A DNA stretch of 64,000 bases from a virus: the IMG/VR virus record IMGVR_UViG_3300009008_000003. One strand, written 5' to 3'. Below are positions 23,100 to 24,377 of the stretch, piece after piece; within the stretch, counting starts at the first letter, position 1, and each line of letters opens with the position of its first letter. The notes beneath the pieces were generated by a model. The model did no database searches, had not been told where the DNA came from, and saw only the letters and a list, made by a program, of their open reading frames with translations. The position numbers and the translations under genes are program-made.

Positions 23100-23174
23100 T
23101 AGCAGAGACGGGACTCGAACCCGTGACCTAGAGGTTATGAACCTCTCGAGCTAAACCAACTGCTCCACTCTGCA
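23100..23174 (-). tRNA. tRNA-Met(CAU), initiator-like
   Basis: AGAGG-UUCAUAA-CCUCU; fMet-type D arm GGAGCAG..GCUCG; 1:72 mismatch; only two G-C pairs next to the loop. Confidence 0.88.
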
Positions 23175-23189
23175 TATGTAGTTTTACTT

Positions 23190-23453
23190 TAGCTATTTCT
23201 TGGGTCTTCGGGCATCCGTCCCACCGGTACACGAAGTGTCTGGTGCGGTCCGTGCCCGTTGAGGGCCCTGAATAGCTAGTGTGAGATTTCCCTGGCTTCC
23301 GTCCAGGCACGGAGGCTGCCCGCGTGCCGCTGCAGTTCCGCGGGGACATGCCGGCTCCGGGCGCGCGAGCTCACAATGCGAAGCATTGACTGCTTCGGCA
23401 GGACGCTACGTCCTACCCAACTAGAAACCCTTATTCAAGGCTCAACTTCTAGT
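23190..23453 (-). ncRNA. unassigned GC-rich structured RNA (~230-260 nt)
   Basis: Sharp GC island; UUGGGU/ACCCAA, GUGAG/CUCAC, AGCUAUU/AAUAGCU long-range pairings plus ~6 hairpins. Confidence 0.7.
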
Positions 23454-23475
23454 CAGTAAAATAATCTAAAACTAG

Positions 23476-23842
23476 TGGAGACGGCGGGAATTGAACCCGC
23501 GTCCATCAAAACCTTTAACCAAAGTCATTCACAGCTTAGTTAGTTTTTTACACTTTATTTAAAGACGCTAGTAACGCTTCACTAAACAACGCTCATTATC
23601 GTCTACTCCGAGTTGGTCTCCTCGGTTGTCACAGAGTGGATTTAAATTTGTATCGCCATTAAATCCCTATGGCTAGTCAGTTATTTTTACGCCACTATCA
23701 GTACCAACTAACAGGTCTGTAGTAGCGGGTAGCCCTCAGGCTGCCAAAGCGTAAGATTTATCATTTAAATTTTGGTAAGCCTATGACTAGGCTTATGCTG
23801 CACTTCGATCTCAAATAACGACGTCGAAACCAATTCGTCCCC
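23476..23842 (-). ncRNA. ssrA: tmRNA; tag (A)DKSYALAA at 23736-23762
   Basis: GGGGACGAAUUGGUUUCGAC...GGACGCGGGUUCAAUUCCCGCCGUCUCCA; G3:U70; ORF GAT AAA TCT TAC GCT TTG GCA GCC TGA. Confidence 0.95.
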
Positions 23843-23847
23843 ATAAA

Positions 23848-23936
23848 TTGCGCTGGATGGACTCGAACCACCATTTGCGGGCTCTTAGTAAGCTGGCCAG
23901 CTTTGTCCCGTGCGTTACCAACTTCGCCACAGCGCA
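23848..23936 (-). ncRNA. tRNA-like RNA with palindromic insert in the anticodon loop
   Basis: UGCGCUG/CAGCGCA, D and T arms intact; CGGG...CCCG encloses AAGCUGGCCAGCUU. Confidence 0.75.
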
Positions 23937-24103: not shown

Positions 24104-24175
24104 TGCGAAAGACGGGAGTCGAACCACGTGACCTTCCGCAGCTCTTGCGGATACTATTCACTGAGCTACTTTCGC
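24104..24175 (-). pseudogene. degenerate tRNA-like gene
   Basis: GCGAAAG/CUUUCGC-A; D stem broken; UCCGCA-AGAGC-UGCGGA hairpin (5-nt loop); bulged T stem. Confidence 0.6.
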
Positions 24176-24195: not shown

Positions 24196-24223
24196 AAAAA
24201 AGGCGACCTATGGCCGCCTTTTA
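24196..24223 (-). terminator. intrinsic terminator (possibly bidirectional)
   Basis: AAAAAGGCG-ACCTATGGC-CGCCTTTT. Confidence 0.6.
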
Positions 24224-24348: not shown

Positions 24349-24377
24349 ATTATACTAAAAATTGTATGAAATGTCAA
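24349..24377 (-). promoter_or_regulatory. consensus sigma70 promoter upstream of the tmRNA/tRNA block
   Basis: TTGACA-17 nt-TATAAT. Confidence 0.85.

Follow-up and report, generated by a model that had tools for sequence, protein, structure and literature searches.

RNA genes at the locus

The locus lies in a 139.8-kb virus contig of IMG/VR (74% complete according to CheckV), and the public runs that contain this contig are marine metagenomes. A stretch of 64,000 nucleotides of this contig is referred to as the window. On its minus strand a tRNA-like gene, a tmRNA gene, the element studied here, a tRNA-Met gene and a gene for a DUF7873 protein follow one another (Table 1), and the block around the element holds the RNA-repair genes Rnl1, Pnkp and Rnl2. 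Like the stable RNAs of phage tRNA clusters (T4 rnaC/rnaD type), the element is located in a co-oriented array of tRNA-type genes; at least 18 of these, plus the tmRNA, share its strand.

The preliminary description of this DNA had placed a GC-rich, probably pseudoknotted RNA of about 230 nt between tmRNA and tRNA-Met. The position was confirmed by the calls for both neighbours. The length was underestimated: from the 3' end of the tmRNA to the 5' end of tRNA-Met, about 300 nt belong to the element. The 3' end of the tmRNA reads ...CUCCA-CUA, and CCA is not encoded. Neither SmpB nor a CCA-adding enzyme was found in the record, which is uninformative at 74% completeness. Expression was examined in the assembled contigs of one small seawater metatranscriptome, in which the sole matching contig (219 nt) covers the tmRNA body (23502-23719) with one difference; for natural expression of the tmRNA this is a hint, short of proof. 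No contig of that library covered the element, which speaks neither for nor against its expression.

Table 1. Positions of the element, its parts and its neighbours (window coordinates, except where L034, the related phage contig, is named).
Feature	Position	Strand	Remarks
tRNA-like gene	23848-23936	-	upstream of tmRNA; counterpart at L034:4645-4734
tmRNA	23475..23842	-	directly upstream of the element; tag DKSYALAA; ARAGORN; Rfam RF00023, 96.3 bits
Whole element ('X RNA'), about 300 nt	23175..23474	-	starts right behind the tmRNA discriminator base, ends one base before tRNA-Met +1; from MFE fold and L034 homologue
P0 5' strand, UAGUUUUA	23467..23474	-	pairs with 23179-23186
Hairpin A	23417..23456	-	10-bp outer stem, 5-nt internal loop, 5-bp inner stem, GAAUA loop
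Hairpin B, GUAGGACG-UAG-CGUCCUGC	23398..23416	-	two-sided change in one of the six pairs counted; 8 bp long in the MFE
Hairpin C, CGAAGC / 7-nt loop / GCUUCG	23379..23397	-	stem identical in both phages
Alternative hairpin C', CAAUGC-UUC-GCAUUG	23374-23388	-	overlaps hairpin C
Arm D	23281..23374	-	conserved base GUGAG/CUCAC; 84-nt interior, 23286-23369
Arm E	23190..23278	-	closing stem E1, UAGCUAUU/AAUAGCUA; 73-nt interior, 66% GC
P0 3' strand, UAAAACUA	23179..23186	-	within invariant 14-mer CUAAAGUAAAACUA; ends 4 nt before tRNA-Met
tRNA-Met (CAU)	23100..23174	-	directly downstream of the element; ARAGORN; Rfam, 61.3 bits
DUF7873 protein gene	23005-22262	-	downstream of tRNA-Met
Element homologue	L034:5104-5322		AT-rich

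A homologue in a related phage and the common fold

Among 5.8 billion proteins, the DUF7873 and Pnkp proteins had one relative each above 57% identity (65 and 71%, respectively), and each of these relatives is encoded on a contig of 136,612 bases. L034, which is part of the contig carrying the DUF7873 relative, also encodes a Pnkp-type protein. Its genes are arranged in the order Rnl1, Pnkp, tRNA-like gene, tmRNA (tag DTPLLMAA), a stretch of about 220 nt, an HNH endonuclease gene, tRNA-Met, DUF7873 and Rnl2. The DNA of the two phages aligns across the tRNA-like gene, the tmRNA and the first 100 nt or so of the element; the alignment is lost in the GC-rich part and regained just before tRNA-Met. 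Identity in the alignment of tRNA-like gene, tmRNA and element was 81%, compared to about 70-74% in most of the neighbouring coding DNA, and the 5' half of the element (P0 and hairpins A, B and C) was 82% identical. The homologue search proposed as a check in the preliminary description thus gave one homologue, with compensatory changes. The HNH endonuclease gene of L034 (L034:5333-5842) is free-standing and sits exactly between P0 and tRNA-Met, overlapping the latter with its last codons; only 4 nt are present at that spot in the window phage.

When the L034 homologue was folded alone, the MFE structure consisted of P0 and hairpins or arms A, B, C, D and E, with a z score of -9.86 relative to dinucleotide shuffles. 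The window sequence yields the same P0, A, B, C, base of D, and E. In the MAFFT alignment 43 pairs in six helices (P0, A outer, A inner, B, C and E1) were compared; 98.8% of the cells were paired and both partners had changed in eight pairs, of which four belong to A, one to B and three to E1, all in a single pairwise comparison of the two known members. When the 3' partners were slid by 1-3 columns as a control, 0-2 two-sided changes and 34-52% pairing were obtained, and 2 of 500 shuffles reached the observed values. The element is very probably a selected RNA structure.

Hairpin A carries the largest share of these changes, with two one-sided pair changes in addition to the four two-sided ones, while its top, GCCUUGAAUAA, is invariant between the phages. 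Five of its cells are G-U pairs, which would turn into A-C mismatches on the plus strand; on account of these cells, and in agreement with the orientation of all flanking RNA genes, we assign the element to the minus strand. Hairpin B, listed in the preliminary description as GGACG/CGUCC, is retained in L034 with its one compensatory pair. The stem GAAGCA/UGCUUC from the same list is hairpin C and is present in both phages; being invariant, it offers no covariation test, and hairpin C together with its 3' flank (AAUGCUUCGCAUU) does not differ between the phages. The 8-bp P0 was predicted independently in both phages, and its strands are identical. As P0 and hairpin C do not vary, their pairing is neither supported nor contradicted by covariation. 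The alternative hairpin C' (YAAUGC-UUC-GCAUUR) has C-G as its outer pair in the window and U-A in L034, and this change is suggestive at most of pairing in C'. In both phages P0 is followed by an AU-rich single strand of 10 nt.

The pseudoknot of the preliminary description was built on two helices, AGCUAUU/AAUAGCU and UUGGGU/ACCCAA, which can both be drawn in the window and do cross. The first of these is E1, with its three compensatory pairs in comparison to L034. The second is the sole crossing helix and conflicts with two covarying hairpins, as it shares bases with the 3' strand of A and with the 5' strand of B; UUGG ends the outer stem of A and GU starts B. When the L034 sequence was read by eye, CUAAGG was found in place of UUGGGU, and arm E contained no complement to it. 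The pseudoknot is thus unsupported.

Coding can be set aside almost entirely as an explanation of the locus. Two frames are open there, one of 73 aa (23128-23349, minus strand) and one of 47 aa (23281-23424, plus strand), and conserved translation of the longer one had been named beforehand as an observation that would speak against an RNA. Neither frame has a Pfam match, the 73-aa frame enters the tRNA-Met gene, and L034 is without most of the sequence concerned. In addition, the substitutions between the two phages are of the RNA type and compensate each other within stems.

The search for further homologues was extended to several collections. In 50,697 phage records, blastn returned none, either with the element or with the L034 stretch from the tRNA-like gene through tmRNA to the element. 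Exact-pattern scans of the IMG/VR viral contigs gave no homologue, the 16 matches of one scan all being rejected by the covariance model, and the 11 matches of a metagenome scan were all unrelated palindromes or tandem repeats. Two unrelated metagenome contigs (L045:423-535 and L048) carry tandem 30-nt repeats, CCATTAGCGAAGCAGGGAATGCTTCGCATT, that hold the hairpin-C word by chance. Of two scans of a genome collection, the first had no match and the second a single chance 21-mer within a coding gene. No further member was detected by nhmmer, blastn or a covariance model of the 5' half (R1) in about 0.5 Mb comprising the loci of the DUF7873 and Pnkp relatives and the phage's own genome. The RNA block is not kept beside DUF7873 in relatives at 57% protein identity or below, and in a 204-kb phage with a tmRNA, a terminator follows the tmRNA in place of the element. 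The element is known from two marine phages only and is clade-specific.

The GC island and the variable arms

The abrupt GC island that had drawn attention to the locus was borne out. In 100-nt windows at 23250-23399 the GC fraction was 0.66-0.71, the surroundings being at about 0.35-0.45, and the peak of 71% stands in a genome of 38.4% GC. Genome-wide, 100-nt windows had a mean GC of 0.384 with a standard deviation of 0.064, and the island is the longest and highest of the record. In another sample of that study, a contig of 466 nt covers tRNA-Met, the element and the end of the tmRNA with zero differences, so that a false join in the assembly can be dismissed and the island is real DNA. The interior of arm D and that of arm E make up the island, split by the conserved frame AAAUCUCAC-ACUAGCUAUU. 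The complementary words listed in the preliminary description are all present, with the qualification that CACCAG/CCGGUG reads so on the minus strand only, and the local hairpins other than B and C lie inside arms D and E, where the two phages cannot be aligned.

Compared to dinucleotide shuffles, the 300-nt stretch as a whole had fold z scores of -3.8 on the minus strand and -5.1 on the plus strand. The excess sits in hairpins A-C (z -5.13) and in arm E (z -3.33). For arm D the z score was +0.92, and 170 of 200 shuffles folded equally well or better. GUGAG/CUCAC, proposed to close a large domain, forms the base of arm D and is conserved (UGAG/CUCA in L034, misaligned by MAFFT and excluded from the pair count). 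The 84-nt interior of 74% GC corresponds in L034 to a hairpin tip of 20 nt and 20% GC. Arm D of L034 is a plain AU helix of 11 bp with a 6-nt loop, and its upper 20 nt are what has been replaced in the window. The interior of arm D looks like a lineage-specific replacement without evidence of a selected fold. The idea that arm D contains a multiple cloning site, raised by five 6-bp palindromes in 50 nt, was dismissed as unremarkable, since by a rough estimate about 2.3 are expected in an interior of some 80 nt with such a GC content.

Arm E behaved differently from arm D. Its interior is 73 nt long with 66% GC, compared to 53 nt and 45% GC in L034, and nearly all its bases differ between the phages despite the same architecture, in which a bulge separates E1 (8 bp) from E2 (3-4 bp) and a 2-bp step leads on to E3 (7 bp). 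GC is concentrated in the paired bases (67%, against 35% in the unpaired ones). E is a genuine arm whose version in the window is richer in GC.

These differences bear on the possibility that the interior of arm D, and perhaps arm E, is functionless foreign DNA, a patch brought in by recombination or gene conversion from a GC-richer relative or host and possibly promoted by homing-endonuclease activity at the locus. The unpaired bases predicted for arm D are GC-rich (0.62), unlike those of arm E (0.35), the fold of arm D is no better than that of its shuffles, and an HNH endonuclease gene lies a few bases from the element in L034. That GC-rich patches occur in this genome is shown by the only other comparable island, a patch within the GDP-L-fucose synthase gene. 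However, neither an exact nor a near donor was found in the phage, viral, metagenome and genome collections, where the sole match was the chance 21-mer in a coding gene; the fucose-synthase patch is likewise without a close donor; and arm E retains the architecture of the family, which argues against random foreign DNA there. We consider a foreign origin possible, although the odds are rather against it. The fucose-synthase patch itself (up to 67% GC; L040:340-690, G000:C1 about 92540-92890) is located about 1 kb beyond the first base of the window. It is in frame between AT-rich flanks, which makes the gene a mosaic; with the best protein relative at only 82% identity, it is left without a donor.

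The exchange of the arm D interior also affects the ribozyme that had been suggested as a candidate. A large pseudoknotted RNA or ribozyme of about 230 nt with a GC-rich core would agree with the two crossing helices and with the absence of any match to a known family. Nevertheless, the GC-rich core is swapped for a 20-nt AU tip in L034 and folds no better than shuffles, and an interior that is so freely swapped is unlikely to contain a catalytic core; no self-cleaving or self-splicing family scored at E up to 10. With one of the crossing words embedded in the covarying hairpins A and B and its counterpart missing in L034, such an RNA is very improbable. The element is uncatalogued and conserved, it is unknotted, and catalysis is unlikely. 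Of all its parts, the GC core is conserved least and folds least convincingly, and the functional evidence lies in the 5' half. As a caution, the eye-catching GC island is less telling than the ordinary-looking 5' half.

Putative function, comparison with known RNAs and upstream genes

The comparison with Rfam proposed in the preliminary description was run and matched the element to no family. Rfam 15 was searched at gathering thresholds for the whole window, and at E up to 10 for 601 nt around the element and for the GC-rich 196 nt; noise in the element was limited to hairpin matches with E of at least 0.15 and scores far under the cut-offs. Among the families tested without a match were RNase P, SRP, 6S, group I/II introns, self-cleaving ribozymes, riboswitches, GOLLD, ROOL and Y RNA-like. 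The suggestion of a structured non-coding RNA outside the RNase P, SRP, 6S and group I/II families is thus upheld by the lack of a match together with the compensatory changes in L034. Permuted tmRNA (RF04321) was considered and rejected, with 23.9 bits of the 47 needed; what aligned was conserved sequence of the adjacent one-piece tmRNA (T arm and 3' end), with the element placed in an insertion.

Our reading of the locus, to which we assign a probability of roughly 0.6, is that the element is an excised RNA of about 300 nt with paired ends and a working 5' half. It would be cotranscribed with the tRNA-like gene, tmRNA and tRNA-Met; the genes are a few bases apart and neither promoter-like nor terminator-like sites were found between tmRNA and tRNA-Met, which makes co-transcription likely. 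In the transcript, the 8 bp of P0 would join the bases after the tmRNA 3' end to those before tRNA-Met, with hairpins and arms A-E inside. Maturation of the neighbours could then free the RNA, by a 3' cut after the tmRNA discriminator, placed there because CCA is not encoded, and by an RNase P cut at tRNA-Met +1. The enzymes are assigned from general tRNA and tmRNA maturation. The ends of the released RNA would be paired in P0, which may contribute to its stability, and many stable RNAs have paired ends. In L034 the HNH gene intervenes between P0 and tRNA-Met; this rules out RNase P as the source of the 3' end in that phage, where the end must be formed in another way.

P0 and hairpins A, B and C, as conserved as the tmRNA, are likely to be the working part, since in this half invariant loops occur beside covarying stems while D and E vary. 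On the strength of this sequence pattern, the 5' half is probably where a protein or a second RNA docks. No antisense target or repeat of more than 13 nt was found in the phage genome. Arm D has been replaced and enlarged by 84 nt and arm E has kept its shape in a GC-richer form, the two together making up the GC island.

The main rival to this reading is a cis-acting insulator or processing spacer, whose hairpins would keep the folds of tmRNA and tRNA-Met apart and give host RNases an entry, the excised piece being degraded. The element exactly fills the gap between two RNAs that need excision, P0 places both cut sites side by side, and the AU-rich single strand of 10 nt after P0 is present in both phages. 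Wholesale change is tolerated in arms D and E, and the tmRNA of the 204-kb phage manages with a terminator instead of the element. Conversely, a passive spacer is not expected to be as conserved as the tmRNA (82 vs. 81%), nor would the invariant GCCUUGAAUAA and AAUGCUUCGCAUU be expected beside covarying stems. We regard a mere spacer as unlikely, if still the strongest competitor of an excised RNA with a working 5' half. A bolder form of the latter would make P0 and hairpins A-C the founding example of a new trans-acting phage RNA that acts together with the phage tmRNA and the initiator-like tRNA-Met. One conceivable task would be to capture a host factor of translation, ribosome rescue or RNA repair, arms D and E being interchangeable cargo or a means of stabilisation. 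This version is doubtful.

Small stable RNAs are known from the tRNA cluster of T4 (species 1 and 2; rnaC and rnaD); they are structured, are not tRNAs and have no known function. The element resembles rnaC and rnaD in being a structured non-tRNA RNA among co-oriented phage tRNA-type genes, presumably cut from the same precursor. It differs from the T4 RNAs, as these are generally described, in being about twice as long, in its position behind a tmRNA and in the closing stem around five hairpins. P0 is reminiscent of the leader-trailer processing stems of rRNA and tRNA precursors, in which a helix of the flanks joins two processing sites, here the 3' end of the tmRNA and the 5' end of tRNA-Met. 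However, P0 encloses a spacer rather than a mature RNA and is only 8 bp long, too short for a classical RNase III stalk.

GOLLD (RF01998) and ROOL are likewise structured RNAs of phages and prophages with unknown function, often near tRNA islands. In a marine sample, one GOLLD member follows a Met-tRNA (PMC12286853). The element matched neither Rfam model at any threshold used. Compared to these RNAs as generally known and as described (PMC12286853), it is much smaller, is without supported pseudoknots, has two members and contains freely variable arms. The top of hairpin A is similar to lambda nutR boxB (GCCUU-GAAUA-AGGGU vs. GCCCU-GAAAA-AGGGC, 12 of 15 positions), with the same shape of a 5-bp stem and a GNRNA pentaloop; the boxB pentaloop is recognised by N (PMC9074901). 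Such boxB-shaped hairpins occur in the genome at the chance rate (14 seen, 11.4 expected), and boxA (CGCUCUUA-like) was absent upstream of hairpin A in the window and in L034; for the time being we treat the likeness as coincidence.

Phage tRNA islands contain many structured RNAs of unknown function, such as T4 rnaC and rnaD, GOLLD and ROOL. The element adds to these a small family backed by covariation and physically tied to a phage tmRNA and tRNA-Met in an RNA-repair block. Its value is mainly that of a catalogue entry and, with two members, of a test case for RNAs that combine variable arms with a fixed frame.

Several observations concern the genes upstream of the tmRNA. In the tRNA-like gene next to it, a 14-nt palindrome, AAGCUGGCCAGCUU, replaces the anticodon arm, and the palindrome and its flanks show no change in L034. 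An unannotated tRNA-like gene of 72 nt at 24104-24175 (minus strand) was missed by ARAGORN and by Rfam at the gathering score; its counterpart in L034 (4335-4406) is called as tRNA-Leu(GAG). The anticodon stem of this gene covaries (UCCGC/GCGGA vs. CCCAC/GUGGG), and U33 is absent from both versions. A perfect sigma-70 consensus (TTGACA, 17 nt, TATAAT; 12 of 12 positions) is present at 24349-24377 on the minus strand, followed after about 130 nt by a strong terminator-like hairpin of 11 bp with a T run (24198-24222, minus strand). Together they may form a unit for a small RNA that immediately precedes the tRNA-like genes. The terminator-like hairpin and the next 49 nt are nearly identical in L034.
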